IMG/VR virus record: IMGVR_UViG_3300023213_000358
Span: 1 to 38,038 of that record
Length of the DNA: 38,038 bases
Strand: one strand, 5' to 3'
Origin: a virus
Below the pieces are notes generated by a model that did not search any database, had not been told where the DNA came from, and was given only the letters and a program-made list of their open reading frames with translations. Shown one piece after another: positions 128 to 30,334 of this stretch. Each line of letters opens with the position of its first letter. Position 1 is the first letter of the stretch. A program made the position numbers and the translations under genes.

Positions 128-253
128 ACAAACTCCACGGGTCTCGCTGGATCAGGGTTCGGTGCTGGCGGGGGGGGAGGCTGTTCCAGAACAGCCGCTA
201 CGGCAGGGGGGGCGGGGTCAGCCGGCGTGATTTATGTCTGGGAATACTCGTGA
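1..253 (+). CDS. 3' part of the junction-spanning glycine-rich tail-fibre-like protein (continues from 37478..38038; 1-127 duplicates 37912-38038)
   Basis: The frame is open from base 2 to TGA at 251-253, in phase with the open frame at the window end. It translates as ...GAGGKGQSTNSTGLAGSGFGAGGGGGCSRTAATAGGAGSAGVIYVWEYS*. There is a GTGA overlap with the next gene. Confidence 0.75.
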   Translation, partial: TAAGGDNNIKATIGLPGVFIVASSWSGSGASSVYGAGGKGQSTNSTGLAGSGFGAGGGGGCSRTAATAGGAGSAGVIYVWEYS

Positions 254-1536
254 TCTCGAACCCACTGATTCTGTACAACTCCAGCATTTCGCAAAGCCTC
301 ACTGACGCTCAGACCTACATTACAACGCGTGGCCTTCCGACCAACCTTGCGGGTTTTAATTTCGGTAGTGTCGGTACTTTCGTGCCCAACGACACCAATT
401 GGCAGGACGGCACGGTTACACTCACCGCTAATTCCTATAAAAACAACGGCGTGACGATCACTAGCTACGATGGACAACCACTGGGCTTTAACTTCAGTTC
501 ACCGGTGGGGTTTTCCTCCTGTGCACTCGTCAACATTCTGACTACAGCATTTTATGATGCGATCCTGCTTTCGACCTTCACACCACTGGCTTACTTCAGC
601 ACATTTTTAGATGGCGGGACTAACATTCCATTCTCCGCACTGCTGGCATATATTCCAGGCAACTTTGCCTCCACTGCATCCCTTCGCGCCTACAGTCGAT
701 ACATCAGCCTGCGAAGTCCGACTGCTGTCTTTCCTCGCGTCATGCCACACGGCCGAATCGGCTGTCCTGCCAGTTACACCCCGAATAGCACCTTCCCGAC
801 ATTTGATTTTACCGTTGAAATGGTTCCTCGAGTGGGTGGGACGATTGTGTCGCAGGCGGTTAACAATGCGGTGGTAGCAGAGAAAACCTACAATTTCGGC
901 AAGCCCCATGTCACCTCCAGTCTGGGTGGAGCGTTCGTGTCTGGTGGCTTCGGCTTCACCGCAGCATATTGGACATCGCTTATGGCAAAGATGCGAGCGG
1001 CTGTGTGCAACTGGACGATTGACATTGGCAACGGATACGCAGCGCAAAATTACTTCGGGGGCACCACGAACGCGGCAGACCTCTGGAATGGTACATTGGC
1101 TCCGGCAATTTCGATGTGGGCACTGTGCGGTGCGTTCAACATGAACGGATCTGCAGGCAGCAATACGGGCGATCAGAATGTTCCTGGGTCTCACGTATAT
1201 TCAGCAAACTACACAGTTGTGGCCGGAGGGTGGAGCGCACACTGGTATAGTTATCAGTGGTTCTGGACATTTGACTTTCTCTATAACGGTGGGTCTGCAG
1301 GATTCATCACCGTGACGGAGCCCGCCTCTACGGGCAACATGGACCCCTTGACAGTGTTGACGTTTCTGTTGGGTGGGTACAGTCTGTGTGAGGTTTTAAT
1401 GCTGTGTTCGATTAGCGACGGCCTCAGTGACACTCGGAGCAACGAACGCCTAACAGTCGTCGGAGATCCGCTCTATCGGCCTTATGCCACGACGGTTCAG
1501 ACCGCTGTTGGATTTCAGCTGCCGGGGTTCTCATAA
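250..1536 (+). CDS. 428-aa virion/receptor-binding candidate (function unknown)
   Basis: ORF from the track. The GTG start overlaps the upstream stop (GTGA). The protein is rich in Asn/Ser/Thr/Gly/aromatic residues like fibre and spike proteins. GC is lower than the rest of the genome. The C-terminus carries ...ERLTVVGDPLYRPY. Confidence 0.75.
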   Translation: MISNPLILYNSSISQSLTDAQTYITTRGLPTNLAGFNFGSVGTFVPNDTNWQDGTVTLTANSYKNNGVTITSYDGQPLGFNFSSPVGFSSCALVNILTTAFYDAILLSTFTPLAYFSTFLDGGTNIPFSALLAYIPGNFASTASLRAYSRYISLRSPTAVFPRVMPHGRIGCPASYTPNSTFPTFDFTVEMVPRVGGTIVSQAVNNAVVAEKTYNFGKPHVTSSLGGAFVSGGFGFTAAYWTSLMAKMRAAVCNWTIDIGNGYAAQNYFGGTTNAADLWNGTLAPAISMWALCGAFNMNGSAGSNTGDQNVPGSHVYSANYTVVAGGWSAHWYSYQWFWTFDFLYNGGSAGFITVTEPASTGNMDPLTVLTFLLGGYSLCEVLMLCSISDGLSDTRSNERLTVVGDPLYRPYATTVQTAVGFQLPGFS

Positions 1537-5089: not shown

Positions 5090-5297
5090 GAGGCTCTCCG
5101 GAGGTAACCGGAAAGGCGCGATCCAGAGCCGCCTCAAGCGAGTCCTCCAGATCCATCGGACCGTCCTCCTCGTAGAGATCCCACTCGGTCATTTCAGGGA
5201 TGGCCTCGGGGTCCCCGTCCCGCTCATCCTGACAGTGGCACCACGACTGCATGCCGCACTGGGCATGATCGCCGCGAGTACAGGCTTCGCACATCAT
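5082..5297 (-). CDS. Small protein with a Cys/His-rich N-terminus and a strongly acidic C-terminus
   Basis: MMCEACTRGDHAQCGMQSWCHC followed by QDERDGDPEAIPEMTEWDLYEEDGPMDLEDSLE. ATGA overlap with the radical-SAM gene stop. Confidence 0.65.
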   Translation of the reverse strand: MMCEACTRGDHAQCGMQSWCHCQDERDGDPEAIPEMTEWDLYEEDGPMDLEDSLEAALDRAFPVTSGEPRG

Positions 5298-6175
5298 CCG
5301 AATAACCCCGTCTGTGCGTCGTACCGCTCGCGCCGTGACGATTTGATGCAGCCGGCGTACGCGCTGAAGGGCATGTAACGCCAGAGGCGTCGGTTCGCCC
5401 AGCGCGCAACATCTTTGAGCTTGCGCTCAGTCCAATCGAACTTGACCAGCGGCTCCTTCTCCAGCGCGTTAAGTTTGATCTTGTACTGCACGTGAGGCTC
5501 ACCACCCCAGGCGATCGCCTCTCGGATGCGCACCATACACTGATCGAAAGATTCGTTGCCGATCAGTACGTAGGGGCGCACCCGCTTCGGCTTCATCCCG
5601 CGAGAGGTGAGAATGAGCATCATCGCGCGCACTTGCCGCCACTCGTGCGACTCGTCGTAGCCGAAACGCCAGGGCCCGCGATTGATCTTCGACCAGCGCT
5701 CGAAGGTCGCGTCGTCAAAGTTCGAGGGCTCAAACCCCGAATTGGCGTCCCAGAGGGGAACGCCGGAGGCGACGTAGCGCTCAATGATGTGCTCCTGGTA
5801 GCGCACGTCGAGCCCGGCCAGATTGTTGTCGCACAGGATCGGGCGCACCGGGAAGTTCGGGAAGTGCTTAAAATCCCCGTCGATCATCCACGCGTTGCAG
5901 AAGTCGCAACGCATGTTGCACCCGCGGCTTGCATAGGTGGCGTCCGCGTTGTGGAACCGAATGGCATCCGGGATCGGTGCACCAAGCTCCGCGACCCCCT
6001 CTAGGTAGTGCCTGCGCATGAACGTGGCAGGTCCCCCGGCGAGCACTCGATAGCCCCAAGCCTTGTACTGCTCGGCGCGATCGCGGGCGTCCGGGAGCCG
6101 CCAGGTGAAGGCTACGGACAGGTAAGCATTCTCGCCGTCTGTCCACTCGGCCAGTCCGTTCACCCAACCGCTCAT
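5294..6175 (-). CDS. Radical SAM superfamily enzyme (unassigned subfamily)
   Basis: Canonical CX3CX2C cluster motif in YASRGCNMRCDFCNAW (the SRGC...C.FC context is typical of radical SAM cores), followed by ILCDNNL. About 80 aa of N-terminal extension. No second Cys cluster (no SPASM). Confidence 0.7.
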   Translation of the reverse strand: MSGWVNGLAEWTDGENAYLSVAFTWRLPDARDRAEQYKAWGYRVLAGGPATFMRRHYLEGVAELGAPIPDAIRFHNADATYASRGCNMRCDFCNAWMIDGDFKHFPNFPVRPILCDNNLAGLDVRYQEHIIERYVASGVPLWDANSGFEPSNFDDATFERWSKINRGPWRFGYDESHEWRQVRAMMLILTSRGMKPKRVRPYVLIGNESFDQCMVRIREAIAWGGEPHVQYKIKLNALEKEPLVKFDWTERKLKDVARWANRRLWRYMPFSAYAGCIKSSRRERYDAQTGLFG

Positions 6176-6390
6176 GCAGCGTCACCTGTTATGGAAAGAG
6201 GTGATCTGGACGCGTTCCACGCCTCAACCGCCTCGTCCCAGTCATCCCGGTGAGGCCCTTGGCCCCCGCACTGGCAGGTGACGCGGTAGCGCAGTCCGCG
6301 CTGCGAATACTCCGCCACGCGCTGCCGAAGGGATCGGCCGCAGAATGGGCAGGGCGCGATCAGGCCCGTGCGATCAACCGCCAGCGCCAT
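6172..6390 (-). CDS. Lar-family restriction-alleviation-like zinc-ribbon protein
   Basis: PCPFCG...(x)...VTCQCGGQGP...EAVEAWNASR matches the Lar family pattern (CPFCG ... C..C.a.gp ... A...WN.R). Good SD (GAAGGAAGTCATG). Confidence 0.65.
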   Translation of the reverse strand: MALAVDRTGLIAPCPFCGRSLRQRVAEYSQRGLRYRVTCQCGGQGPHRDDWDEAVEAWNASRSPLSITGDAA

Positions 6391-6957: not shown

Positions 6958-7710
6958 TCATACGAGCAGTACCTTCTGATAGGGCATGCGCTCAATCCGT
7001 GAGGCGAAGTGCGCCGCCTCGCGCCAGTTGTTTGCGTTCCGTCCTTCCCGGCGAGCTGCGAAGCTCCAGGCCATCGAGTCAGCGGAACGGAGTAGTCGTC
7101 TCACCAGCCCCGAGTGCAAAGCCGTCGTCTTGAGGCCAAACCCGTGAAGGAGTAGGTCAGGGCGCACCGCATGGATGGCCAGCAATACGGCCTCGATCGC
7201 CTGAACATCACTGTTGCGTTTGCATACGGAGCCGACACCGACCCACAGGCCAGCCGTGAGCCGGGGTCCGTACATGTGGACATGCCGGACGTAGTCCTCG
7301 GGCGAGTAACCCTGTAGGACCGGCATGATGTACACGCCAGGATTGCAGGCGACCAACGCATCGTACCGCTCGATCGTCAACCGCTGGTGCTCTGCGATGG
7401 ATAGCCCCGTTTTGGCGATGATCCACGGCTCGCACATGTAGTCCTGCGCGACCGCTGCGAGCAACTCGCCATTGCCGACCCAACGCCGGATCTCTGCGGC
7501 GTACTCCTCGACGCCATGCCGGTAGTGACCGTACGTAGCCAGCTCCGTGAAAGCGCCGCTGTCCATGATCCAGCGACCGACCTTGAATGGCCCCTTGCGC
7601 CTGCGCAGCCGGTTCACGCTGATGAAGGCCGTCTCGAAGTGACGAGCATCTGACGGTTGATGCAAGCCCGGGAAGAACAGCAGATTGTTTGTCCGCTGCT
7701 CTACGGACAT
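6958..7710 (-). CDS. dpdA: DpdA-like DNA-guanine transglycosylase (TGT superfamily) candidate
   Basis: Internal ATG of track ORF 6958..8073. Recognisable pattern MDSGAF ... MPVLQGYSPEDY ... VGVGSVCKR ... LHGFGLKTTAL ... SADSMAWS, as in 7-deazaguanine DNA transglycosylases. Not verified by search. Confidence 0.6.
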   Translation of the reverse strand: MSVEQRTNNLLFFPGLHQPSDARHFETAFISVNRLRRRKGPFKVGRWIMDSGAFTELATYGHYRHGVEEYAAEIRRWVGNGELLAAVAQDYMCEPWIIAKTGLSIAEHQRLTIERYDALVACNPGVYIMPVLQGYSPEDYVRHVHMYGPRLTAGLWVGVGSVCKRNSDVQAIEAVLLAIHAVRPDLLLHGFGLKTTALHSGLVRRLLRSADSMAWSFAARREGRNANNWREAAHFASRIERMPYQKVLLV

Positions 7711-7931
7711 TGCTGGTACTCCGCCGCTGCGTGCTGATCTATCGCGCCTGTATGGGGCGATTTGAACCAGTAATCCGAGTGTTCGAGGCCGAGCTTCCGC
7801 AGCTCGCCCACGGCCACCTTTTTCGTCCCGGCATTGAAGTGGTTCTCGCAGAGGAAGATGCCGAGCCAGCACGACGCCTTTAGACAGGCATCGCAGACCG
7901 TTACCGGATATTCCAAGATGCGATTGCTCAT
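7701..7931 (-). CDS. Hypothetical Cys-containing protein (C..C...SCW.G.F.C...AGT...ELRKLGLEHSDYW)
   Basis: Internal ATG of track ORF 7701..8102. ATGA overlap with the upstream gene. Confidence 0.55.
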   Translation of the reverse strand: MSNRILEYPVTVCDACLKASCWLGIFLCENHFNAGTKKVAVGELRKLGLEHSDYWFKSPHTGAIDQHAAAEYQQCP

Positions 7932-8648: not shown

Positions 8649-8890
8649 GATGTTTTCCCCAGAAAATACGGCTGTATCCACCATTGCCAAACTCCCTTGA
8701 ACCAGGAGAACGTGTAGAGACAGGACATCATCATGATGCCGAATTGGTGATGACCCGCAAGCGTCCAGAACCAAAAGGGTTGCGCTGCTGATCCGAACAG
8801 ACACGCACTCCGACGCCAACTCTCGCGTTTGCTCTGCGTGAGGAATACGGCAGTTGAGCCGAATGCGACGATGCCGATCTGGTCGATCAC
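8645..8890 (-). CDS. 81-aa polytopic membrane protein (about 3 TM, Trp-rich)
   Basis: GTG at 8890 forms a GTGA overlap with the methyltransferase stop. VIDQIGIVAFGSTAVFLTQSKRESWRRSACLFGSAAQPFWFWTLAGHHQFGIMMMSCLYTFSWFKGVWQWW. Locally lower GC. Confidence 0.55.
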   Translation of the reverse strand: MIDQIGIVAFGSTAVFLTQSKRESWRRSACLFGSAAQPFWFWTLAGHHQFGIMMMSCLYTFSWFKGVWQWWIQPYFLGKTS

Positions 8891-9615
8891 GCAAGTTGCT
8901 CCACTCGTGGCTTGTAGACCCGCGCGATGTGACGTGCGAGAGGAAGGGGGATTTTGGCTACTGTGGCCTGCCAAGCGAGACGTTCCAATCTCTTGCTGTT
9001 CGCCGACCTTCCATTGCCGCCGTTTTTGAAAAACCAAGAGCGCCCACTGCCTTCGCCTTTGCGTCCCCTGGTCGCGAGAATTGTATTGAAGGCCTGCCCC
9101 GCACGATGCTTGGGGTCTTCTGGATGTTTCCAGTCCAAACCACCCACCTTCACGCCGCCCTTGGTCATCGGCATGAGCGCCGGCACATCGCCCCACAGGT
9201 AGTAACTGCCGTAGTGCCAGCGTGCGCGCCCGACCCACTTCTGCGCCCCGCGGACATTCTCCACGACCATCGGGATGTGGCGACCCGCTGCCGCGCAGGC
9301 CTCACGCTGAATGCGAAATTGCGCCTGGAACAACTCAATCCCGAGCACCGGAGGCGGCGCGGCTTTGGCGGCCTGCCAGGGCATCGCGCGCCAACTAAAT
9401 TCCTGGCAGGGACTTGAGCCCACGATCAGGTCAGCGTCCTTGAACTGCCGGCCGTGGAGCGTGCGCACGTCCTGCAAGACGAGTTGCCCGGGGTAGCGGT
9501 GCTCACCGTAGACGTGCTCCTCAAGGTCAAAGCCGATCACACGCCATCCTTCGGCCAGAAGCCCTTCCGTCCAGCCGCCGAGTCCGCAATACAGGTCCAC
9601 CGCCAGCGGCCTCAC
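8887..9615 (-). CDS. DNA (cytosine-5)-methyltransferase, compact
   Basis: Motif I DLYCGLGGW, motif IV GSSPCQEFS, motif VI VVENVRG, and a C-terminal IPLPLARHIA resembling motif X. GTG at 9615 overlaps the upstream stop (GTGA). Confidence 0.85.
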   Translation of the reverse strand: MRPLAVDLYCGLGGWTEGLLAEGWRVIGFDLEEHVYGEHRYPGQLVLQDVRTLHGRQFKDADLIVGSSPCQEFSWRAMPWQAAKAAPPPVLGIELFQAQFRIQREACAAAGRHIPMVVENVRGAQKWVGRARWHYGSYYLWGDVPALMPMTKGGVKVGGLDWKHPEDPKHRAGQAFNTILATRGRKGEGSGRSWFFKNGGNGRSANSKRLERLAWQATVAKIPLPLARHIARVYKPRVEQLA

Positions 9616-9831: not shown

Positions 9832-10155
9832 TCAAGCCCTGCCGGCGCCAGACGCAATGACGGCAAGTATCTGGGCGTCGAGGTCCGGGATCACCGGCAC
9901 GTCGGGATTGCGTGCACGGAAGCGCTCGGCTCGACGCTTGGCACGCTCTTTGCGGTCGGCTCGTTCTGGCCGATGTGCCTCTGAACCATTCGTTTCACCG
10001 AGGTTCCTGGCGTCCGTGAGGTCGGCGCCCGTGAGGTCGGCGTCCGTGAGGTCGGCGCGCGCCTTGACGGCCGCGATCACCGCAGTACGCAGGCTCGCGA
10101 ACTCGCCCCCGAAGATGACGGCGCCGGTGAAGCGGTTTTTAATCTCGACGTTCAT
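9832..10155 (-). CDS. Pentapeptide-repeat protein
   Basis: ADLTDADLTGADLTDARNL (A(D/N)LXX repeats) encoded by a 3 x 15-bp tandem DNA repeat. ATG at 10155 has a strong SD (GAGGAGattgagcATG). Confidence 0.75.
   Translation of the reverse strand: MNVEIKNRFTGAVIFGGEFASLRTAVIAAVKARADLTDADLTGADLTDARNLGETNGSEAHRPERADRKERAKRRAERFRARNPDVPVIPDLDAQILAVIASGAGRA
10024..10068. repeat. 3 x 15-bp tandem repeat (ccgtgaggtcggcgY) encoding the pentapeptide repeats
   Basis: Read directly from the sequence. Confidence 0.9.
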
Positions 10156-10192
10156 GCTCAATCTCCTCAAACGAGTAACTGTGGATCAGTGG

Positions 10193-10378
10193 TCATGACT
10201 GCCTCAACCGCAGCAGCGGACGCCGAGTCGGAGACGACACCGGTACGCTTGACGCGGCCTCGCTCGGCCAGTGCAGGTTCGCGAGCAACCAGCGCGTCCA
10301 CTTCCACGCCCCTTTGCGCTCGCAACGGCGGACCCGCGTGCGCCGGTAGTAGGCCCGGTGGTAGCTGCGGCGGTCCAT
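10193..10378 (-). CDS. Hypothetical basic 61-aa protein
   Basis: Internal ATG of track ORF 10193..10429, 2 nt after the nuclease stop. GC3-rich first half. Confidence 0.45.
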   Translation of the reverse strand: MDRRSYHRAYYRRTRVRRCERKGAWKWTRWLLANLHWPSEAASSVPVSSPTRRPLLRLRQS

Positions 10379-10380
10379 GT

Positions 10381-10959
10381 TCAGGTACTCGCCTGCCACC
10401 ACCACAGATTCAGCGCCGACACAAACCAACTCCAGTCGCGGGTGTCCTCGTACGGATAGAGTCGATACTCGCTATCCGCGCGCAACTGCACCCCGTAGCG
10501 CTTCAGGGGTCGCCCGCCATAGGTGCGGCGGAACAAGTGCTCGTAGCCCGCCGTCTGTAGGCCCGCAGTGCGCGGCATGACAGTGGGAGTCTTCCAGTCA
10601 AACACCGCAGTGTAGCGTCGCATCACGCCCAACAAGTCTAGAGTGCCCGCGAACTTCAGCTGCGGGTCCACCATGCGATGCTCGACCCGCAGGACGGTCA
10701 CTTCGGCCTCTTTCACGAATTTCTGCGCAGCCGTGACGTAGGGCACGAGTTGAGGATCGAGCGTCGCCCAGTCCAGTTGCACCAGGAGCGCAAGCGCCAC
10801 GGCGTGATGCACCTGCTGCCCGAACACCCGCGCGGCCTCTAAGGTTTCTGGGGGAATCCCGTCCCAGCACTGCAGTGGCTCCAGCACCTGCGTCACGGAG
10901 GGAATCTCCTGGTCATCCAGGGAGTACCGGTGCTCTTTCTCGTCGAAGCGAAAGTCCAT
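10381..10959 (-). CDS. PD-(D/E)XK family exonuclease (RecB/Cas4-like fold, no Cys cluster)
   Basis: N-terminal EKEHRYSLDDQEIPSVTQVL and the catalytic-like block FAGTLDLLG...AVFDWKT. Partner position next to RecT. The start could also be 11001. Confidence 0.7.
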   Translation of the reverse strand: MDFRFDEKEHRYSLDDQEIPSVTQVLEPLQCWDGIPPETLEAARVFGQQVHHAVALALLVQLDWATLDPQLVPYVTAAQKFVKEAEVTVLRVEHRMVDPQLKFAGTLDLLGVMRRYTAVFDWKTPTVMPRTAGLQTAGYEHLFRRTYGGRPLKRYGVQLRADSEYRLYPYEDTRDWSWFVSALNLWWWQAST

Positions 10960-12392: not shown

Positions 12393-12643
12393 CCATCCGC
12401 GCCGCCTTCGTGCTGTTCAGGGCGCATCCCGCGAATCCCTTTGGGTACATGGGACGGATTCGTCTGCCCGACGGGCAGTTCTTTCGGATCGAGGCGAATG
12501 CAGTTGCCGAACGGGACGGGATCAAGAAGCACTTCGAGGGTATCTTGGTGCCTGTGGACGTGAAGCAGGGTGACCTGCTGTCATCGCCGCGCGACGAGGA
12601 CGCAGCCCTGCCGTTCGATGATGCGCTGCCCGAGGGACTCTGA
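12389..12643 (+). CDS. Hypothetical protein
   Basis: GTG start overlaps the upstream stop (GTGA). ORF from the track. Confidence 0.6.
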   Translation: MTIRAAFVLFRAHPANPFGYMGRIRLPDGQFFRIEANAVAERDGIKKHFEGILVPVDVKQGDLLSSPRDEDAALPFDDALPEGL

Positions 12644-12644
12644 C

Positions 12645-12878
12645 GTGGACTGTCTGCGCGTCGAGTTTCAATGTTCGGCGTGTCAGGAATTTTCCGTCAT
12701 GACAGTGAGCGTAGACGGTCCTGCGACCAACGCAACAGCCAAGAAAGTCGAGGAAGGGACGCTGGCAGCGATTCGCGAAAACATCCGCGAAGGCACGGAG
12801 CGGCCAGAGTGCCCTGCCTGCCATCAGAAGAGCTTGTCCACAACCGGCACGCGGTGGCGGCGCAAGTTACAGTCATGA
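12645..12878 (+). CDS. Zinc-ribbon protein (CSAC ... CPAC)
   Basis: GTG at 12645, 1 nt after the upstream stop, in frame with track ORF 12570..12878 (alternative ATG at 12618). Confidence 0.5.
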   Translation: MDCLRVEFQCSACQEFSVMTVSVDGPATNATAKKVEEGTLAAIRENIREGTERPECPACHQKSLSTTGTRWRRKLQS

Positions 12879-13363
12879 GTGGCTTCTGCGGCATCGACCC
12901 AGGCTTGTGTGGCGCCATCGCTTTTCTCCAACCTGACAGTACGTTTCAGCAAGTACTCGACCTTCCGATCATTCGCGACGGCCGGCTCGCGTGGGTAGAT
13001 GGCGGGGTGTTGCAATCCTTGTTGATTGATAGTCAGCCGGATGTTGTCATCGTCGAGCGCGTCTCGGCGATGCCGCGTCAAGGCGTCGCCTCCAGTTTCA
13101 ACTTCGGCGTGGGCTTGGGCTCGATCCTTGGCCTCATCCAGGCGCGCGAGCTGCGCTTGGAGCTCGTGACTGCGAGAGTGTGGAAACGCGATCTCAAGTT
13201 GTCCTCGGACAAACACGCCTCCCTTGATAAAGCCCGCTTGCTCTATCCCGGCGCGGAACTTCTACGCAAAAAGGACGAGGGGCGCGCCGAAGCGCTCTTG
13301 CTCGCATATTGGGGGTGGCGGCGGCAACTGGCCCACGTACTGGGGGCGCAGGAGCTCGCATGA
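12875..13363 (+). CDS. RuvC-like Holliday-junction resolvase
   Basis: GIDPGLCGAIAF (catalytic Asp), VVIVERVSAMP (Glu), SSFNFGVGLGSILG, KDEGRAEALLLAYWG (acidic pair). ATGA overlap upstream. Confidence 0.75.
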   Translation: MSGFCGIDPGLCGAIAFLQPDSTFQQVLDLPIIRDGRLAWVDGGVLQSLLIDSQPDVVIVERVSAMPRQGVASSFNFGVGLGSILGLIQARELRLELVTARVWKRDLKLSSDKHASLDKARLLYPGAELLRKKDEGRAEALLLAYWGWRRQLAHVLGAQELA

Positions 13364-13782
13364 CCGAGCTCAGTGCCGCCGAGAAGCGCGCGAACGCGGC
13401 GCGCATCAATGCCTTCCAGGCCCTGGCCAAAGTGCTCGGGCAGATCCTGCAGCCGGTCGTCTCGGTCGTCGAGGTGCCGCTGGAGGGCAACCGCAAGATC
13501 CTCTTGTCCACCTGTCCTGCAGAGTTGGCGCAGATCGTCGCCCAACAGCAGTTGCAACTGCGGCAGTTGGAGATCAATCTGCAGTGCATCGTGGACATGC
13601 TCTTGCAGAGCGCGCTGCTCGTCGCTGGGCCTGACGGGGCGCCCGTACGGTCTAACATTACGATGGAGCAATTCTGGCTCCTGTGTGCGCAGTCAGCGGA
13701 GAAACTCGCCGACACGATGCAGCGCGGGCTTTTGTCGCAGGGCGCGGTCCGCCCCGCATCTGGGATCGTGCTGGCCAATTGA
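13360..13782 (+). CDS. Hypothetical protein
   Basis: ATG at 13360 forms an ATGA overlap with the resolvase stop. Confidence 0.65.
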   Translation: MTELSAAEKRANAARINAFQALAKVLGQILQPVVSVVEVPLEGNRKILLSTCPAELAQIVAQQQLQLRQLEINLQCIVDMLLQSALLVAGPDGAPVRSNITMEQFWLLCAQSAEKLADTMQRGLLSQGAVRPASGIVLAN

Positions 13783-18203: not shown

Positions 18204-18413
18204 GTGATCGGGCCATTCATATGGGAGTTGCGCGGGCCTGGCCTTACCGTGCCCCTCAATCTTGAGGTCAGCCTGCCTCTGGCTGAAGCGGTGGGACTGA
18301 CGGTCGAGGCGTACGTCAAACATCGCTTGTGGGAGGCATATCTATGCGCTCAGGGGGTGCTACAGCCAACGGGGCCGATGTTACCCTCCGAGCTCATTGA
18401 GCGACCGCCGTGA
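18204..18413 (+). CDS. Hypothetical small protein
   Basis: ORF from the track. Its stop overlaps the terminase GTG (GTGA). No SD. Confidence 0.4.
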   Translation: MIGPFIWELRGPGLTVPLNLEVSLPLAEAVGLTVEAYVKHRLWEAYLCAQGVLQPTGPMLPSELIERPP

Positions 18414-20332
18414 GTTTTTCCCTCAGTGACTTCTGGGGGTGGTGCGCGCGCCTCGCGATCAATTCCAAAGAGTTTGGCACCGTCGCCTTTGACAAACCGT
18501 ATGGTCCGCAGCGTTGGGTACTGCGCGAAGTCGCCCGAGGGTTGGACGAGGGCGTGCATGACTTCACCAATCTCAAGTGCCGGCAGATCGGGATCTCGAC
18601 GGCCTTTCTGGGGCTGGATCTGTACTGGCCGTTCACGCACGAGGGCTTGGACGGCACGATCGTCACCCATGATGAGCAGACGCATGTTGCCTTTCGCACG
18701 CAGCTCTCCGAGTACTACCGCTCCTTGCCGCGCGCCTTGAAGCCCCGGCAGGTCACGCACAACGTGATCGAGTTCGTGTTCCGGTTTCGCTCGGGGGTCA
18801 TCTCGCGCCTGCAATACCAGATCGCCGGCGTGCGCGCGTCCGGCAACAACAAGTTGGGGCGGGCAAAGGGCAATGCGTATCTGCATGCCACAGAGATGGC
18901 CTTCTGGGGCGACCAACAGTCGATTCAGTCGTTGAACAACTCCCTTGCCGAGACTAACCCGAACCGCCTCTATATTCGTGAGTCCACCGCCAACGGTTAT
19001 AACGCCTTTGAAGAACAGTGGCGCATGGCCTGCCGCGCGACGACACAGCGGGGAATTTTCGTCTCCTGGTGGGCGCATGAGCTCTACCGGGTCCCAGAAG
19101 GCTCCCCGATCTACAAAACCTACTGGGGCTCGAGCGGCAAGATGACCCGCGAAGAGGGACAACTCGCCCGCGATGTGGCGCTGCTCTATGGTCCTGCGAT
19201 GGAGTATGTGAACGGCACGAAGGAGATCAGTCCCGAGCAGATCGCCTGGTATCGCTGGTACTCAGAGGAAAAAGTCGGCGACCCGGACATGGTGAACCAG
19301 GAGATGCCCTGGACCGAGCACCAGGCGTTTGTGGTGACGGGCGCGCAGTACTTCTCCGCGCGCGAGCTCACCGATGCCCACAAGGCGCTCGCGCACGATC
19401 CCACGCCCACCTATCTGCGGGTGGAGATCCGCCACACGATGACCGACACGCAGATCCTCGCGACCCCCAAGCGCGTGTCGAATCTGCATGTGTACGCACA
19501 GCCGGTGGACGGAGCGCAGTATGTCCTGGGGGCGGACCCCGCGTTTGGTTCTTCTGACTGGGCCGATCGCTTTTGTCTGTCGGTCTGGCGTTGTTATGCC
19601 GATCGGATCGAGCAGGTCGCCGAGTACTGCACCCCGGACTGTCTGCCCTACGCCTTTGCGTGGGTGTTGTGTTACTTGGGCGGGTGCTACTCCCCGTGTG
19701 CGTGGAATCTGGAAGTGAATGGCCCGGGTCAAGCGGTGCTCGGGGAGATGGACAACCTGCGGCGTCAGCAGTGGGCCGGCACCGATCACGACAAGCAGAC
19801 GATGAAGAACTTCCTCGCGGGGATGAAGGAGTTTCTCTACGCTCGCCCGGATCAGATTTCCCGCCTGCCCACCGCCCGCGGCACGGTGTCCACGCTGAAG
19901 GAGAAGCGCCGCTACTTCGACACCTTCAAGGGCTATTTCGCGCGCGGCATGGTCGTGACGCACTCCCGGGAGCTGCTCGAAGAGATGAAGTGGGTGTCGG
20001 TGCAGCCCGGGGAAGCCCCTTCTGCGGCCGGTCGGCGCAAGGATGACCGGGTGATTGCGGCGTGTTTAGCGGTGACGGCGTGGCATGATCGCTTGCGCGC
20101 GGGCTTGATGGCGCGCAATGTGACGCACCAGCGCACTGAGAAAGAGCCGACGAAACAACTGACCCCGATGGAAGCTCTGGTCGCCAAACAGCGCACGCTC
20201 CTGGGGCTCGCCGACCCGAAGGCCCAAGGCTCGCGTGAGCCGGGCGCTGGCGCTCCCGCCGTGCCCGCGGCCGGTCGCTCGTTTGCGGGCCGGCGCACGA
20301 CCCGACGGCACTTTGGAGGAGCTCGACGATGA
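18410..20332 (+). CDS. terL: Terminase large subunit
   Basis: ATPase P-loop-like KCRQIGISTAF. Nuclease-domain patterns YVLGADPAFGSSDWADRFCLSVW and RKDDRVIAACLA. Size and position precede the portal. Confidence 0.85.
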   Translation: MSFSLSDFWGWCARLAINSKEFGTVAFDKPYGPQRWVLREVARGLDEGVHDFTNLKCRQIGISTAFLGLDLYWPFTHEGLDGTIVTHDEQTHVAFRTQLSEYYRSLPRALKPRQVTHNVIEFVFRFRSGVISRLQYQIAGVRASGNNKLGRAKGNAYLHATEMAFWGDQQSIQSLNNSLAETNPNRLYIRESTANGYNAFEEQWRMACRATTQRGIFVSWWAHELYRVPEGSPIYKTYWGSSGKMTREEGQLARDVALLYGPAMEYVNGTKEISPEQIAWYRWYSEEKVGDPDMVNQEMPWTEHQAFVVTGAQYFSARELTDAHKALAHDPTPTYLRVEIRHTMTDTQILATPKRVSNLHVYAQPVDGAQYVLGADPAFGSSDWADRFCLSVWRCYADRIEQVAEYCTPDCLPYAFAWVLCYLGGCYSPCAWNLEVNGPGQAVLGEMDNLRRQQWAGTDHDKQTMKNFLAGMKEFLYARPDQISRLPTARGTVSTLKEKRRYFDTFKGYFARGMVVTHSRELLEEMKWVSVQPGEAPSAAGRRKDDRVIAACLAVTAWHDRLRAGLMARNVTHQRTEKEPTKQLTPMEALVAKQRTLLGLADPKAQGSREPGAGAPAVPAAGRSFAGRRTTRRHFGGARR

Positions 20333-20667
20333 CAGCCCCGCTCGACTTTTGGAAACTGATCGCCGCGACGCAACCGCTGGGCCGGCTGTCGTTGGTCGGC
20401 TCCCCCGGGTTACTCAACACCAAGAACCAGGTGTGGGCCGAGCAGATCCACCAAGCGCAGGTCTTCCAGCGCCACGGACTGTCCGAGGAAGAAGTGAGTT
20501 TAATGGGCGCGGCCTGGTGTGTGCGCCTCGTGAACGCCCGCCGGGCCATCGAGCGAGCGATCAGCGAGAAGTTAGTTTCGACGGCCTACCAGCTGCGGCA
20601 GGCGGGGTTTATGACCAACTTGGCCTTCCCGGTGGCCCTCCCACCGCTACCCCCGAGAATGCCGTGA
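20329..20667 (+). CDS. Hypothetical protein
   Basis: ATGA overlap with the terL stop. SD GGAG. Confidence 0.6.
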   Translation: MTAPLDFWKLIAATQPLGRLSLVGSPGLLNTKNQVWAEQIHQAQVFQRHGLSEEEVSLMGAAWCVRLVNARRAIERAISEKLVSTAYQLRQAGFMTNLAFPVALPPLPPRMP

Positions 20668-21314
20668 AAGCCTATCTCTGGCTGCTGCCCGCGATCCTCG
20701 TCTGGCTGTCCTACCTCGCTCCGCTCGCCCCGTGGCTGCTCTGGGTCCACCCGCACTGGTGGAGCCTGCCCTTGGCTCTGGTGCTCTCGCCGGCGGGCTT
20801 GCCGATTGCCTTGGGCTTTCCTCTCGTCGCGCTCTTCGCGGGGCTTGAGCGCTATCACGTCGACGCTTCTTGCCAGTACCCGGGTCGCTCGGTGCTCACG
20901 TGGATTGATTCACCGGTGAGACAATGGTGGGGAAACGAGGAAAACGGGATCAATGGGGCGACAGGACCGTTGCCCGCGGGCTGGCCTCGGGTGGCGTGGC
21001 CCCTGTGGCGGCAAATCTGGGTCTGGTCGGCATGGCGCAATTCGGTCGGGAACGCCCGCTGGCTCCCGTACTACGGCTGCACCGTGGACCCCAAGAGGGT
21101 GCACGTGTATATGTTCACGCCCGGACTGCACGAGACCAAGGTGGGGCAGTATCTGGCGCGCTTCGGGTGGCGATTTGAACTGCGCCTCTGTTACAACCCG
21201 ACGCAGTTGGAGTGGCAGAAACGCCGGTTTTTGTGGGTGGGCTGGCGCCTCGCGCAGCAAACGACGCTCACGCCTGGGGTTGGCTTCGCGTTCCAGCTCT
21301 GGGCGGCGCTATGA
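20664..21314 (+). CDS. Trp-rich integral membrane protein (function unknown)
   Basis: GTG at 20664 forms a GTGA overlap. TM segments LWLLPAILVWLSYLAPLAPWLLWV and LPLALVLSPAGLPIALGFPLVALFAGL. Then WWGNEENG...IWVWSAWRNSVGNARW. Confidence 0.6.
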   Translation: MKAYLWLLPAILVWLSYLAPLAPWLLWVHPHWWSLPLALVLSPAGLPIALGFPLVALFAGLERYHVDASCQYPGRSVLTWIDSPVRQWWGNEENGINGATGPLPAGWPRVAWPLWRQIWVWSAWRNSVGNARWLPYYGCTVDPKRVHVYMFTPGLHETKVGQYLARFGWRFELRLCYNPTQLEWQKRRFLWVGWRLAQQTTLTPGVGFAFQLWAAL

Positions 21315-21790
21315 TGCCTTTCACCGCCGATCATCCCCGCAACCGCGCCCCGCCCGGGGTGTTCTCGTGCGAGGAGATCCGCTACTGGATCAAAGAACTC
21401 ACCACGCGCTACGAGTGGAGTGCGACCGCGCTCGCCTCGGCCTTGGGGTTCCACGACAAGTGGGCCCCGCAGTCGCTGCTGTGCAAGATCCGCGCGCGTC
21501 CCGCGTGGATCTATCCCGGAGAGCAGATTCGCATCTCCCGGGGCCTCGAGCGGGTGCTCTCGGGCGAGCTCGTCTGTCGCCGGACCGAGATCCGTGGTCG
21601 ACGGCGCGTGTTCGCCGTGGTCGCAGATCACCCCGTGCCGCTCAAGCGCCCGCCGCGCTGGCGTTACAACCTCGCTGCGCTGCGCTTGGAGCGCGTCATC
21701 GGCCTGCCCCCGCGCCCCAGTCCCGCACTGCCCTCCTTCCGGAGCGTGGTCGGCATCCCACACCGCACCTGGACGGCGGCGAAAGAGTAG
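21311..21790 (+). CDS. Hypothetical basic protein
   Basis: ATGA overlap upstream. In frame with track ORF 21212..21790. Confidence 0.6.
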   Translation: MMPFTADHPRNRAPPGVFSCEEIRYWIKELTTRYEWSATALASALGFHDKWAPQSLLCKIRARPAWIYPGEQIRISRGLERVLSGELVCRRTEIRGRRRVFAVVADHPVPLKRPPRWRYNLAALRLERVIGLPPRPSPALPSFRSVVGIPHRTWTAAKE

Positions 21791-21795
21791 CGCGC

Positions 21796-22347
21796 ATGGG
21801 AGTCGTGCACGCTTTTGAATGCTTGGCCCACGGCCTGTTCGAGTCCCGTGTGAAGGCGGGCGAGGTCCCGAAGTGCCCGAAGGGCTGTAGCAAAGACCTG
21901 GTCACGCTGGTGTTCGTCCAGGCTCCGGGGTTTGTCGGCGCGCGCACCCGCAAGGCCGACCAGCTACTGCGGGAGGCCGCGGAAATGCAAGGCTTGTCGG
22001 ACATCTCGACGAGCCCCTCTCGCCCGGGCGGCTCGGTGGCCGATCGCAACCGCAAGAAAAACCTCCAGCGCATCCGTCTGCCCGATGGCAGTACAGGATA
22101 CGTGCAGCCGAGCCAAGCCGCTGTCTCGATGCAGGCCCCGGACTTCGGCCGCTATGTCGGGGCGCTCACCCACCGGGAAAACACGTTGTCCACGCTCGGC
22201 TTTGGCCACAAGTACGACTCCAGCGAGTGGACCAAGAACGAGGCGACCGGGAACCTCCACCACACCGGGGCGAAGTTGCCGAACCTTCCTATTCCCACCG
22301 GGTCGACCGGGGTCTCGATCGAGCGCGTCAAGGAGCGCAAAAAGTGA
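21796..22347 (+). CDS. Hypothetical protein
   Basis: Internal ATG of the 464-aa track ORF 20953..22347, whose upstream part is Arg/Gly/Pro junk overlapping better genes. Confidence 0.6.
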   Translation: MGVVHAFECLAHGLFESRVKAGEVPKCPKGCSKDLVTLVFVQAPGFVGARTRKADQLLREAAEMQGLSDISTSPSRPGGSVADRNRKKNLQRIRLPDGSTGYVQPSQAAVSMQAPDFGRYVGALTHRENTLSTLGFGHKYDSSEWTKNEATGNLHHTGAKLPNLPIPTGSTGVSIERVKERKK

Positions 22348-22658
22348 AGTATCGGGTGAGTTTTGCCGTCCCGCCGAACGTGGACCGCGCCGTGGCGCAG
22401 ATGCTCGTGCAGGGCCAGGAGCTCGAGGCGGACCAGTACCGCGTTCAAGACAGTGGCTGGCTGGAGTTCTACCAGAAAGGGCCACTGGATCATCCGACCC
22501 AACACGGCGTGCAATTTGTCGCCGATGTGTTGATCATCGCGTACGCGCCCGGTGTCGTGCGCTCGGTGGCGAACGTGGGGGCGTTCGCCGAGGCCACTCT
22601 CTCAGTAAAGGGCTCCCGTGAAGCTCCCCCCCGACCACACGAAGCGCGAGAAGCTTGA
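22344..22658 (+). CDS. Hypothetical protein
   Basis: GTG forms a GTGA overlap upstream. Overlaps the putative portal start by 41 nt. Confidence 0.5.
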   Translation: MKYRVSFAVPPNVDRAVAQMLVQGQELEADQYRVQDSGWLEFYQKGPLDHPTQHGVQFVADVLIIAYAPGVVRSVANVGAFAEATLSVKGSREAPPRPHEAREA

Positions 22659-24378
22659 GCGACTGGATTTCTTCGTCAACCTGAAAGACCGGTGTCTGGT
22701 CTCGCGGCCGGAGCGCCGCGAGCAGTACACGAGCAATCGCTTCTACTGGCTCTATGGCACGGATGGCTCGTACGAGAACGAGGACACCGAGACGGGGTTG
22801 GGCCCCCCGCCCGGGAACAAACTCTGGCCGCACATCGACCAACTCACCTCCTTTCTGTACGCCCAGGACACGACGCGCTTTTCCGTCCAGCCGGGCGTGA
22901 GCCAGCCCGACGTGTTCCAACAGTGGGTGCCGGTGTTGAATGACTACGTGAACGACGAGTGGCACTCCTCCAACACCGACATCGTGTATGGGCTGGCGCT
23001 GCTGCTCTCACTTGTCTACGGCACGACGCTCATCAAGCCTGTCTGGAAGCGCGATGGCATTCAACCTGGCATCGTCCTGCCGCACAACTTTGGCGTCCTG
23101 CGCGAGGACACATTCCAAACTTCCCGCCAGGAGGCCTTCGTTCACTGCTACACGATCACCCCGTCGCAGTTTCGCAATGACTACGGCGCGCTGCCACGCT
23201 TCGAGCAGATTCTGAAGAACGTCAACACGCGCGCGGCAGGCCTGGTGGAAGCGAACGAGGCGGGCATCGATCGCATCATCATGTCGGCGCAGGACCCGCT
23301 CTCGGGCGGCGGGGTCGGCGTCGTGGACTGGCTCGCGCAGGTGTCGATGAACTACGTGCCACGCGTGCGCGAAGAGTTGATCGACATGTTCGAACTCTAC
23401 GTGTACGACGATGCGCTCATGGACTATCGCATCGTCACGATGGCCTCCCCCGACATCCCGCTCTTTGACCGCCCGCTGCAGCTCACCGGCTGGCTGCCTC
23501 ACCAAGAGCCCTTCATCCAGGTGTGCCCGAACCCCGACCCGCACTACTGGTACGGCATCGCCGAAGTCGAGCGCCTGACGCCCTTGCAGGTCTATCGCAA
23601 CAAGTGCATGGCACAGATCGATCACTTGCAGGAACTGCAGGCGCATCCGCCCTCGACCTCCACGGGCTTCCCGTCCGACCTGCTCGAAATGCAGTACGTG
23701 CTGGACAGTCCGAACGGCTTTTTGAACCAGCCTGACCCCTCGAACATGGGGGGTGGGAGTGCGGTGCGTGCCGAGCGCATCAAGATCGACATCCCCCAGG
23801 ATCTGTATAACCGGATCGATCGCATTGACCTGATGTTCGAGGAGATGTCCGGGCTCCCCCCGATCACCAAGGGCCAGGGGGTCGCGGGGGTGCGCTCGGG
23901 AGGTCACGCCTCGGAGCTCGCCAAGCTCGGCTCCTCGCGGGCCAAGAAGCGCGCGCTCGTGATCGAGGACTCCCTTGAGCACCTGGCCACGATCTATTTG
24001 AAGCTCTTGAAGCGTTACGATGACAAGCGCTTGAAATCCTTCACGAATGAGAAGTTTGTGGCGGATCAGTTTACTGATGACTTCATGGTGAAGGTCGATG
24101 CGCACTCGAACTCCCCGATCTTTGCCGATGACCAGACGGCGCTCGCCTTCCAGTTACTGAAAATGAAGGTCATCACGCGCGAGCGCTTCCTGGACATGGT
24201 GCAGGTCCCGAACCGTCGGCAACTGAAGTGGGAACTGAAGAACATTATCGAGCCGGCCGAAGCGAAGGAAGCCCAGATGCGCATGGAACTGGAGAAGCAG
24301 CGTGCCGAGCGCCGCGAGCCCGGGCGGCCCCGTAAACCCAATGGAGCACAGCCGACTACCCCGCCCGCCGCTTCGTGA
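22618..24378 (+). CDS. Portal protein candidate
   Basis: 586 aa. First large gene between terL and the scaffold/capsid genes. No motif-level proof. Confidence 0.6.
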   Translation: MKLPPDHTKREKLERLDFFVNLKDRCLVSRPERREQYTSNRFYWLYGTDGSYENEDTETGLGPPPGNKLWPHIDQLTSFLYAQDTTRFSVQPGVSQPDVFQQWVPVLNDYVNDEWHSSNTDIVYGLALLLSLVYGTTLIKPVWKRDGIQPGIVLPHNFGVLREDTFQTSRQEAFVHCYTITPSQFRNDYGALPRFEQILKNVNTRAAGLVEANEAGIDRIIMSAQDPLSGGGVGVVDWLAQVSMNYVPRVREELIDMFELYVYDDALMDYRIVTMASPDIPLFDRPLQLTGWLPHQEPFIQVCPNPDPHYWYGIAEVERLTPLQVYRNKCMAQIDHLQELQAHPPSTSTGFPSDLLEMQYVLDSPNGFLNQPDPSNMGGGSAVRAERIKIDIPQDLYNRIDRIDLMFEEMSGLPPITKGQGVAGVRSGGHASELAKLGSSRAKKRALVIEDSLEHLATIYLKLLKRYDDKRLKSFTNEKFVADQFTDDFMVKVDAHSNSPIFADDQTALAFQLLKMKVITRERFLDMVQVPNRRQLKWELKNIIEPAEAKEAQMRMELEKQRAERREPGRPRKPNGAQPTTPPAAS

Positions 24379-24485
24379 GGTAGACTTACCCGTGACTGGG
24401 GGCCTTCATGGCAACACCCGGCAGGGATCGGTGAGTGAGTCACTGATCGTCTGCAACCGGGACGCCGACTCGTCAGGAGGAAGCC

Positions 24486-24521
24486 ATGCGCCATCGCAAG
24501 GGCCGTCGCGGGCGACGCTAA
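24486..24521 (+). CDS. 11-codon Arg-rich mini-ORF (MRHRKGRRGRR) with a strong SD
   Basis: cAGGAGGAAGCCATG, read directly. Sits in the 263-nt portal-to-scaffold-region gap, upstream of a terminator-like hairpin. Confidence 0.3.
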   Translation: MRHRKGRRGRR

Positions 24522-24548
24522 ACGCCCGAGTGCTGTTGACCTTGAACG

Positions 24549-24590
24549 ATGCGGCCCGAGGGGTGGCTCCTCTCGGGTCGCATGCGTTTT
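24549..24590 (+). terminator. Intrinsic-terminator-like hairpin
   Basis: A 15-bp stem (atgcggcccgagggg / cctctcgggtcgcat, with 2 G-U pairs), a 5-nt loop (tggct), then gcgTTTT. Confidence 0.5.
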
Positions 24591-24641
24591 GGCGCTGGAA
24601 CAGCTTGACAGCGTTGGACATTCGCGACAGCATCGCCCGCC

Positions 24642-25028
24642 ATGGTGAGCTCTGCGGAGTCGGTGTTGTCGGCGAGTCCTGCCTCGGGCGGGGCGGAGCC
24701 AGTCCCCCCAGGCCCCGCCGCGGCCTCTACGATGACGCCTCAGGAGCCCAAGGGCGAGCAGGCCTCGGCCGATGCAGGCATCATGATTGCGGTCCGGCTC
24801 CTTGAGCGTGCGGCCGTCGTCCACGGCTCGGAGTCCTCCAAGGGCAAGGCGGTGCGCGAGGCCCTCCACGGGCTCACCAAGGCGTATAGTCTGGGCGAGG
24901 ATCAGTTGCTCGAGATCATGCCGGCGGAGATCAAGACGGCGCTCATGGCTCCGGCGGGCGATGCAGGTGGGGGTCCGCAAGAGCTTTCGGGCGCGAGCGC
25001 CCCTGCTGCTGCCGCCGCGGCAGCTTAA
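24642..25028 (+). CDS. Hypothetical protein with a Pro/Ala-rich N-terminus and an Ala-rich C-terminus
   Basis: ORF from the track, GC3-rich throughout. No SD. TTGACA (24605-10) lies upstream. Alternative ATG at 24732. Confidence 0.55.
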   Translation: MVSSAESVLSASPASGGAEPVPPGPAAASTMTPQEPKGEQASADAGIMIAVRLLERAAVVHGSESSKGKAVREALHGLTKAYSLGEDQLLEIMPAEIKTALMAPAGDAGGGPQELSGASAPAAAAAAA

Positions 25029-25042
25029 GACGGAGACCTCAG

Positions 25043-25237
25043 ATGGACAATCGCAAAAAGTTTCTCGGTCCCAACGCGGGCACGCTGCGTGACCCGACCA
25101 GCAATTCCCTCGAGCACGGCCGGATGCGTAATCCGCCGCGTATGATGGAAATGGGCGGGTTTGATCGCACGGGCAAGGGTTTCCACAAGAACGACAAGAA
25201 GCTCTCCCCCGTGGCCACTTCGGTCAGTTCACGGTGA
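25043..25237 (+). CDS. Hypothetical small basic protein
   Basis: SD GGAGAcctcagATG. ORF from the track. Confidence 0.6.
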   Translation: MDNRKKFLGPNAGTLRDPTSNSLEHGRMRNPPRMMEMGGFDRTGKGFHKNDKKLSPVATSVSSR

Positions 25238-25323
25238 GTGTGCGGGCGAAAGGCCGTGGGTTCCCGCGCGGGACCAACCTGCGCAAAGTCACCAGTCGCT
25301 CGCAGCGACGGGGGAGGCGGTAA

Positions 25324-25863: not shown

Positions 25864-25909
25864 TCTGTAAGCACACCCGTGGGGGCGGGGTCACAATGGA
25901 GCGACATCC

Positions 25910-26929: not shown

Positions 26930-26960
26930 GCGGTACGGGCTCGCTCACTGAGGACTCTGT

Positions 26961-27632: not shown

Positions 27633-27665
27633 GTGCGCTGACTTCACTGGGGGGCTGATTCGCCT

Positions 27666-28058: not shown

Positions 28059-28071
28059 TGTGCGCGCGTAA

Positions 28072-28725: not shown

Positions 28726-28734
28726 GGTGCTGTC

Positions 28735-30324: not shown

Positions 30325-30334
30325 GAGCGACAAC

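Follow-up and report, generated by a model that had tools for sequence, protein, structure and literature searches.

A compact singleton-type DpdA in a complete phage genome without preQ0 synthesis genes

The dpdA gene and its product

The window analysed here is the whole of IMG/VR virus record IMGVR_UViG_3300023213_000358, 38,038 nucleotides (nt) long, which carries among its leftward genes dpdA, encoding a 250-amino-acid (aa) protein that resembles the DNA transglycosylase DpdA (Table 1). The gene starts with ATG and its 250 codons form an intact reading frame with a coding-type GC content at third codon positions (GC3), while the plus-strand translation across the same interval is riddled with stop codons. 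It also appears to be translationally coupled to the gene upstream: the end of the preceding open reading frame (ORF; 7701-7931) overlaps the dpdA start by 10 nt. Because the last 127 bases of the window are identical to the first 127, the genome, with a GC content of 62%, is complete.

An earlier sequence-only reading had recognised a DpdA-like DNA transglycosylase from five sequence blocks in a set order, and this identification is well supported by our results. All five blocks are found in the claimed order, namely MDSGAF (aa 49-54), VLQGYSPEDY (aa 131-140, containing Q133-G134), VGVGSVCKR (aa 157-165, containing G158-S161), LHGFGLKT (aa 188-195, containing H189) and SADSMAWS (aa 209-216). 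The protein matches the Pfam family PF23859 'DpdA' with 155.9 bits against a cut-off of 27 (E 1.5e-45; residues 12-222 on profile positions 5-224 of 291) and PHROG 1279 with E 1.7e-69. The same reading had suggested a comparison with the tRNA-guanine transglycosylase (TGT) family. The Pfam TGT model (PF01702) does not match at E <= 0.01, and neither NCBIfam, TGT models included, nor PADLOC yields a match to the protein; the predicted fold is that of TGT.

The AlphaFold2 model behind this fold assignment was built on 38 homologues and reaches a mean predicted local distance difference test (pLDDT) score of 91.7. Searched against the PDB with Foldseek, the model gives 175 matches at E <= 1e-3, with TGT structures and the DpdA structure 7UI4 at probability 1.0. 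TGT structures rank highest among these matches, with a query-normalised TM-score of about 0.6 and about 13% identity in the structural alignments; 7UI4, a TIM-barrel fold, is matched with E 3e-6. Sequence-based searches of the PDB (phmmer with the DpdA protein and with the neighbouring radical-SAM protein described below; hmmsearch with profiles A4, A5 and A6) gave no meaningful match.

The TGT fold, and the annotation of homologues as 'queuine tRNA-ribosyltransferase' in databases, would fit a phage TGT that acts on tRNA and not on DNA. We consider this very improbable. The TGT models of Pfam and NCBIfam miss the protein while the DpdA model matches it, the TGT Zn subdomain is absent, no tRNA genes were found in the window, and the clamp-motif-like C-terminal tails of the clade (see below) point to DNA. 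Furthermore, all DpdAs tested so far act on DNA (PMC10516641).

The active site can be compared with that of bDpdA, the DpdA of S. Montevideo, in which Asp95 is the general acid/base, Asp256 the nucleophile, Asp130 and His181 read the base edge, Gly206 and Gly207 form the pocket loop and Phe99 and Leu236 are stacking residues (PMC10164549). The matching motifs of the window protein follow the bDpdA order with similar spacing. In this scheme, D50 (codon 7561-7563) corresponds to Asp95, F54 to the base-stacking Phe99 and D211 (codon 7078-7080) to the nucleophile Asp256. D90 (codon 7441-7443), in the motif QDYMCEP, is by motif order a candidate equivalent of the Watson-Crick-edge residue, Asp130 in bDpdA and Asp156 in TGT. 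D50, H189 and D211 also align directly with the proteins of phages CAjan, Rosebush and Orion. TGT and bDpdA have a Gly-rich loop that borders the pocket in which the 7-substituent of the base is accommodated; VGVGSVCKR would be its counterpart. Since the hhalign alignment of the clade profile with E. coli TGT is partial and of low probability, the residue equivalences to TGT rest on motif order together with the Foldseek fold.

We then counted these residues in 150 representatives of the clade, clustered at 50% identity. The catalytic aspartates, whose loss in an alignment would have spoken against the sequence-only reading, are kept: D50 in 127/130 and D211 in 120/123. The other positions are likewise conserved (D90 137/137, Q133 142/147, G160 139/139, H189 133/135). 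Because the active-site positions are near-invariant, the DpdA protein looks catalytically active, and the conservation of catalytic residues in such diverse sequences indicates purifying selection. A Zn subdomain, that is, a Cys/His cluster after the nucleophile, was not found, as the 39 residues past D211 contain no Cys and a single His. Most members of the clade are similar in length, at around 240-290 aa.

The complete genome had also been said to lack any gene for the synthesis of 7-cyano-7-deazaguanine (preQ0), and this holds. We scanned 343 stop-to-stop ORFs of at least 65 aa, covering all six frames of the complete genome, and found no Pfam match at E <= 0.01 for QueC, PTPS/QueD, GTP cyclohydrolase I, QueF, Radical_SAM/QueE, GATase or ParB. 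Tblastn searches of the window at E <= 0.01 were likewise negative with three reference sets: FolE, QueD, QueE, QueC, QueF and YhhQ of both CAjan and E. coli K-12, and the ParB-like gp1, QueC, QueD, QueE and FolE of Rosebush. For DpdC and a DpdB or ParB-type partner, no ORF has a Pfam ParB match and PADLOC reports nothing for DpdA or its neighbours. The window phage is thus of the DpdA-only (singleton) configuration, with neither preQ0 synthesis genes nor Gat-QueC or ArcS.

The singleton clade and its indirect tie to 7-deazaguanine

The closest cultured relative is Sinorhizobium phage phiLM21, with whose gp25 the protein shares 64% identity (E 1e-105). It also matches gp20 of Mycobacterium phage Orion (41% identity, E 6e-39), whose catalytic Asp motifs are intact. 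The matches to the pathway-linked DpdA1 proteins of Escherichia phage CAjan and Mycobacterium phage Rosebush are marginal (E around 0.04), compared to E 3e-20 between these two. Based on these similarities, the DpdA protein belongs to the singleton clade of phiLM21 gp25 and Orion gp20.

This clade is very large. At E <= 1e-5 we count 6181 clusters at 90% identity, and at E <= 1e-3 we count 1860 clusters at 50% identity. In the phage collection the window protein matches 407 records, of which 398 are mycobacteriophages; phiLM21, a Rhizobium phage and two Microcystis phages are among the others. At least 79 bacterial species also have relatives in their genomes, among them Paraburkholderia, Rhizobium, Mesorhizobium, Sphingomonas, Methylobacterium, Phenylobacterium and Nostoc; these copies are probably prophage-borne.

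The sequence-only reading had presented a solo DpdA as a departure from the usual phage systems. The published catalogue contradicts this: when 182 viruses were sorted by gene content, the DpdA-only viruses (group 3) formed the largest group, with 76 members, and use of host preQ0 was proposed for them (Hutinet et al. 2019, PMC6884629). Singleton DpdAs form their own clusters in similarity networks (PMC6884629). In the same work phiLM21 is listed with only DpdA and YhhQ, a preQ0 transporter, and Orion without synthesis genes (Supplementary Data 1, PMC6884629). DpdA without a pathway is therefore the arrangement most often described, and phiLM21, the window protein's nearest relative in culture, already stands in the catalogue as such.

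There is also precedent for a DpdA working alone. The DpdA of phage 9g and DpdA2 of phage nt-1, each expressed by itself in E. coli, insert preQ0 as the deoxynucleoside dPreQ0 from the host pool, and insertion by nt-1 DpdA2 is abolished in a queD deletion strain (PMC6884629, PMC10516641). The host pool can thus suffice for a DpdA that comes without synthesis genes.

With moderate confidence, we favour the reading that the compact and intact singleton DpdA replaces guanine in DNA by a 7-deazaguanine taken from the host, with preQ0 as the likeliest base. If it works as TGT and bDpdA do, the enzyme would act on selected guanines of double-stranded DNA and replace them via a covalent Asp-DNA intermediate, with D211 as the nucleophile, D50 as general acid/base and D90 as base reader. 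The base would not be made by the phage; preQ0 would be drawn from the queuosine-pathway pool of the host. The DNA would then be expected to carry dPreQ0-type marks, either sparsely or at particular motifs, and these would weaken restriction. Such an anti-restriction role fits the position of dpdA in a leftward early block that also contains a Lar-like gene, a C5 methyltransferase gene and recombination genes.

Next, we investigated the surroundings of 93 related DpdA loci, with flanks of up to 10 kb per side. In 7 of them, including phiLM21 (gp26), the DpdA gene has a YhhQ/Vut_1-family (PF02592) gene as its immediate neighbour (Table 1). This result supports a 7-deazapurine substrate that comes from outside the phage genome. 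For comparison, a PF02592 gene occurs only once in 82 loci of the neighbouring radical-SAM family (in L060), and there it lies beside a DpdA-like gene. Genes for preQ0 are rare around the clade: 92 of the 93 loci have none within 10 kb, and QueC and QueE are found nearby in a single one, L168. This actinobacterial contig from a metagenome-assembled genome encodes two clade paralogues (9920-10744 and 12568-13458). In the first (L168a) both catalytic aspartates are lost (D50->T, D211->E). The second (L168b), which is intact, shares 40% identity with the window protein (E 2e-39), and after it come WhiB, QueC (PF06508, E 3.8e-63) and QueE. We rejected L168 as straightforward evidence tying the clade to QueC/QueE, since the matched paralogue is the catalytically degenerate one and the link holds via the second paralogue only. 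Finally, no preQ1 riboswitches were found in the window or in six related loci, four of which are YhhQ-DpdA loci. Taken from gene neighbourhoods, the support for a tie between the clade and 7-deazaguanine is indirect.

A number of observations weigh against a preQ0-inserting enzyme in the window phage. No member of the singleton clade has a demonstrated activity, and Orion virion DNA contains no dPreQ0, 2'-deoxy-7-amido-7-deazaguanosine (dADG), 2'-deoxyarchaeosine (dG+), 2'-deoxy-7-aminomethyl-7-deazaguanosine (dPreQ1) or 2'-deoxyqueuosine (dQ) (PMC6884629). Mycobacterium is without the preQ0 pathway (PMC6884629); because around 398 mycobacteriophage records nevertheless keep the gene, and the Orion motifs are intact, host preQ0 would not be a universal substrate of the clade. 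In the window itself there is no YhhQ gene, the preQ0 pool of the host is a presumed one, and the C-terminal tail of DpdA conforms only weakly to the clade motif described below. The pocket loop is also different, GVGSVCKRN being unlike the loops of the validated DpdA1 enzymes (GGMVGR in CAjan, GGLVGR in Rosebush).

Several of these points would be explained if the singleton clade had diverged in function. Its members might insert another base, either a 7-deazapurine intermediate or an unrelated purine analogue present in all hosts, or might excise or exchange guanine on host or competitor DNA. The mycobacteriophage genes, the unmodified Orion DNA, the clade-specific loop for the 7-substituent, the distance from the DpdA1 enzymes with proven dPreQ0 insertion and the scarcity of nearby preQ0 genes all speak for such a divergence, and Hutinet et al. 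state that more work is needed on whether singleton DpdAs have diverged in function (PMC6884629). On the other side stand the YhhQ-family genes, which in our data set occur only beside DpdA-type genes, the intact clade member that adjoins QueC and QueE, and the retention of D90, Q133 and G134, the presumed readers of the guanine or deazaguanine edge. In addition, Salmonella phage 7-11, whose singleton DpdA is of another cluster, has dADG at 0.02% of G (PMC6884629). Overall we regard a diverged function as unlikely, but as the most serious competitor to insertion of host-derived preQ0.

Use of host preQ0 and insertion of a different base had both been raised by the sequence-only reading, along with a third idea that is considered below. 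Use of the host preQ0 pool comes out as the best supported of the three, through the 9g and nt-1 precedent and the YhhQ-family genes. The proposal of a different base keeps its footing in the same lack of an active clade member and in the roughly 400 mycobacteriophages that retain the gene in hosts without the pathway; it is weakened by the YhhQ and QueC/QueE neighbours.

A further alternative is that dpdA is a mosaic passenger, useless in this phage for want of a suitable host base or of sufficient expression, which would leave the virion DNA unmodified. Orion DNA is indeed unmodified (PMC6884629), dpdA sits in a highly mosaic accessory region without conserved neighbours, and L168a demonstrates that clade members can lose catalytic residues. 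Nonetheless, purifying selection on the catalytic residues across the 150 representatives, the size of the family and the intact, coding-type and translationally coupled gene in the window all contradict this, and we hold a passenger role to be quite improbable.

The question of the role of singleton DpdAs dates from 2019: they are the commonest phage DpdA type, and none has a demonstrated product. The window adds a further example, from a lineage without cultured relative, which alone does not make this role easier to test. What the comparative analysis adds is the very large size of the clade, selection for an intact active site, the link to the YhhQ family and a frequent clamp-motif-like tail.

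Neighbouring genes, C-terminal tails and the phage lineage

Table 1. Positions of the features discussed. Coordinates refer to the window, except for the YhhQ/Vut_1 genes, which are numbered within their own loci.
Feature	Position (nt)	Strand	Basis or remark
dpdA, 250-aa singleton-type (Orion gp20 / phiLM21 gp25 clade)	6958-7710	-	PF23859, PHROG 1279, AlphaFold2 model, Foldseek
MDSGAF motif	7549-7566	-	aligns with LDSGAF of CAjan, GDSGAF of Rosebush, LDSGGF of Orion
QDYMCEP motif	7426-7446	-	motif order fits bDpdA spacing
VGVGSVCKR, Gly-rich loop	7216-7242	-	hhalign onto AVGGLAVGE of E. coli TGT, low probability
SADSMAWS motif	7063-7086	-	aligns with SCDSSSWI of CAjan, SVDSSGWG of Rosebush
DpdA C-terminal tail QKVLLV, possible beta-clamp-binding motif	6961-6978	-	degenerate Q-x-x-L-[F/D]-[L/V/F]
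Radical-SAM-like protein, 293 aa, C86-x3-C90-x2-C93 at nt 5897-5920	5294-6175	-	PHROG 9298, AlphaFold2, Foldseek
Radical-SAM C-terminal tail, clamp-motif-like	5297-5314	-	alignments
Lar-like restriction-alleviation protein, 72 aa, between radical-SAM gene and dpdA	6172-6390	-	PF14354, PHROG 599
Compact C5 cytosine DNA methyltransferase, same leftward gene block	8887-9615	-	PF00145, PHROG 363, PADLOC
Direct terminal repeat	1-127 = 37912-38038	.	identical bases
YhhQ/Vut_1 gene abutting DpdA, L014	8777-9304		PF02592
YhhQ/Vut_1 gene abutting DpdA, L103	9234-10001		PF02592
YhhQ/Vut_1 gene abutting DpdA, L118	1771-2409		PF02592
YhhQ/Vut_1 gene abutting DpdA, L138	1903-2427		PF02592
YhhQ/Vut_1 gene abutting DpdA, L158	9439-9996		PF02592
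YhhQ/Vut_1 gene abutting DpdA, L159	10885-11463		PF02592
YhhQ/Vut_1 gene abutting DpdA, L164	9439-9996		PF02592

A gene for a radical S-adenosylmethionine (SAM)-like protein does lie close to dpdA, as the sequence-only reading had pointed out, and its product contains a CxxxCxxC motif. The two genes are around 780 bp apart on the same strand, with two small genes between them. The protein matches PHROG 9298 (E 2.8e-10) and has no match in Pfam or NCBIfam. It belongs to a family of at least 2457 clusters at 90% identity, with 154 matches in IMG/VR. The AlphaFold2 model (pLDDT 90.1) finds AprD4, MgmA and MiaB as its best Foldseek matches, and QueE is absent among the matches listed. Similarly, tblastn with the QueE proteins of CAjan, E. 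coli and Rosebush gave no match in the window, a stretch that includes the radical-SAM gene.

The third idea was that this nearby radical-SAM enzyme supplies or tailors the DpdA substrate; the two genes would then make a new two-gene modification module. Apart from the common strand and the short distance, one other locus looks similar: in the unrelated viral contig L060 (6638-8809) a radical-SAM homologue is directly followed by a divergent DpdA-like ORF (VDNGAF...LHGL...SADST, no Pfam match) and a Vut_1-like ORF. Clamp-motif-like C-terminal tails are also present in both families. Nonetheless, two juxtapositions of radical-SAM and DpdA genes in 82 loci are too few for a module. Window-type DpdA was found in none of 80 IMG/VR radical-SAM loci, nor in L001 (flanks of up to 10 kb each), and the radical-SAM gene in none of 92 related DpdA loci. 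Neither gene has a conserved neighbour, the commonest cluster of flanking ORFs being present in 8 loci. Moreover, QueE by itself would not suffice for preQ0 without FolE, QueD and QueC, and the window has no Pfam Radical_SAM/QueE match. We therefore rejected the radical-SAM gene as a DpdA partner on co-occurrence and on a fold that is not QueE-like, and we give the two-gene module very little credence.

In the flanks of both gene families we noticed ORFs with an N-terminal motif of the IEWTHHTFNPWWGC type (for example L089 573-1814 and L112 6210-7388), which recur near radical-SAM genes in 5 loci and near DpdA genes in 6 loci. The motif may resemble that of the phage Gp37/Gp68 family.

The C-terminal tails of the two families resemble a motif for binding the bacterial beta-clamp, whose consensus, attributed to Dalrymple et al. 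in 2001, is reportedly QL[SD]LF. Among close DpdA homologues, the tail has a Q in 36 of 38, and 31 of those 36 have L at +3 (Q-x-x-L-[F/D]-[L/V/F]). More diverse DpdA representatives end in QLSLF, QASLF, DQLELF and similar sequences. A strict clamp-like pattern is found in 14 of 88 full-length DpdA representatives, compared to 0.6% of 11380 background ORFs. In the radical-SAM family, Q[QT]GLF plus one residue forms the C-terminal end in 96 of 120 homologues, as in the tail QQGLFV.

It is thus possible, judging from these alignments, that DpdA is tethered to the host sliding clamp via its C-terminal tail. Should the motif prove genuine, it would account for the targeting of DpdA to DNA without DpdB and would identify the radical-SAM protein as a DNA-acting enzyme. 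A bolder proposal, which we put forward as speculative and rather doubtful, is that singletons of the Orion and phiLM21 type are a separate class of minimal, Zn-free base exchangers. A QxxLF-type tail would recruit them via the clamp to replicating DNA, where they would write a host-derived base that is not necessarily preQ0. The radical-SAM protein would then be a second, undescribed clamp-tethered enzyme of phage DNA.

Two other genes of the leftward block are connected with restriction or modification. The Lar-like protein matches PF14354 with E 9e-6, just below the cut-off, and PHROG 599 with E 1.7e-9. The C5 methyltransferase matches PF00145 (E 2.8e-6), PHROG 363 and the PADLOC model MTase_II, and its translation contains the PCQ and ENV motifs. 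Altogether, the Pfam matches of the six-frame scan comprise DpdA, RecT, a GH108 lysozyme, helix-turn-helix regulators, the C5 methyltransferase, the Lar-like protein, a PD-(D/E)XK nuclease and an SU10-type portal and adaptor. An integrase was not detected in the window.

The SU10-type portal and adaptor matches lie in a structural module on the plus strand (18410-31204). In the phage collection, the only relatives of this module are the uncultured Manatee Spring phages (portal and terminase, 42% identity) and Hydrogenobaculum phage 1 (terminase only, 33%), and no match came from a megablast search of the collection with a 25-kb part of the window. Judged by these comparisons, the window phage, which is represented only by its metagenomic contig, is of an uncultured lineage with no cultured relative.

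Beside the terminal repeat, an ORF of 428 aa (250-1536, plus strand) lies in a low-GC stretch (around 54% compared to 62% for the genome) and has no Pfam or NCBIfam match. It may have been acquired recently or may act in host range.

Comparison with known systems

Among known enzymes, TGT (PF01702) provides the closest structures to the window protein and has the catalytic aspartates in the same order; its N-terminal lid and Zn subdomain are both missing from the window protein. The bDpdA structure (7UI4), from the Dpd restriction-modification system, shares the TIM-barrel fold and has counterparts of its Asp95 and Asp256 in the window protein, with D90 as a candidate counterpart of Asp130 by motif order. 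However, bDpdA is longer, at around 410 aa, contains a structural Zn site together with insertions specific to DpdA, and depends on the ParB-like ATPase DpdB (PMC10164549); none of these features is present in the window protein. A bDpdA model would be expected in the PADLOC and NCBIfam libraries, and neither library matches the window protein.

The DpdA1 enzymes of CAjan and Rosebush are of the same Pfam family as the window protein and share the order DSGAF ... LHxFG ... DSxxW, presumably with the same DNA base-exchange chemistry. They differ in their greater length (306 and 385 aa), in the pocket loop and in lying next to FolE, QueD, QueE and QueC, to which Rosebush adds a ParB-like gene; none of these genes accompanies the window dpdA. 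For both phages dPreQ0 is proven, at around 30% of G (PMC6884629).

Finally, the systems most like the window are those of phiLM21 and Orion. phiLM21 differs in pairing DpdA with a YhhQ-family transporter, and it is classed as a siphovirus and carries a prophage repressor, whereas the window phage, from its portal and adaptor matches, is an uncultured SU10-like podovirus. With phiLM21 gp25 and Orion gp20 the window protein shares the clade, the motif set and the compact size (250 aa compared to 274 and 258 aa), and all three phages are alike in their lack of preQ0 synthesis genes and in the published hypothesis that applies to them, the use of host preQ0.

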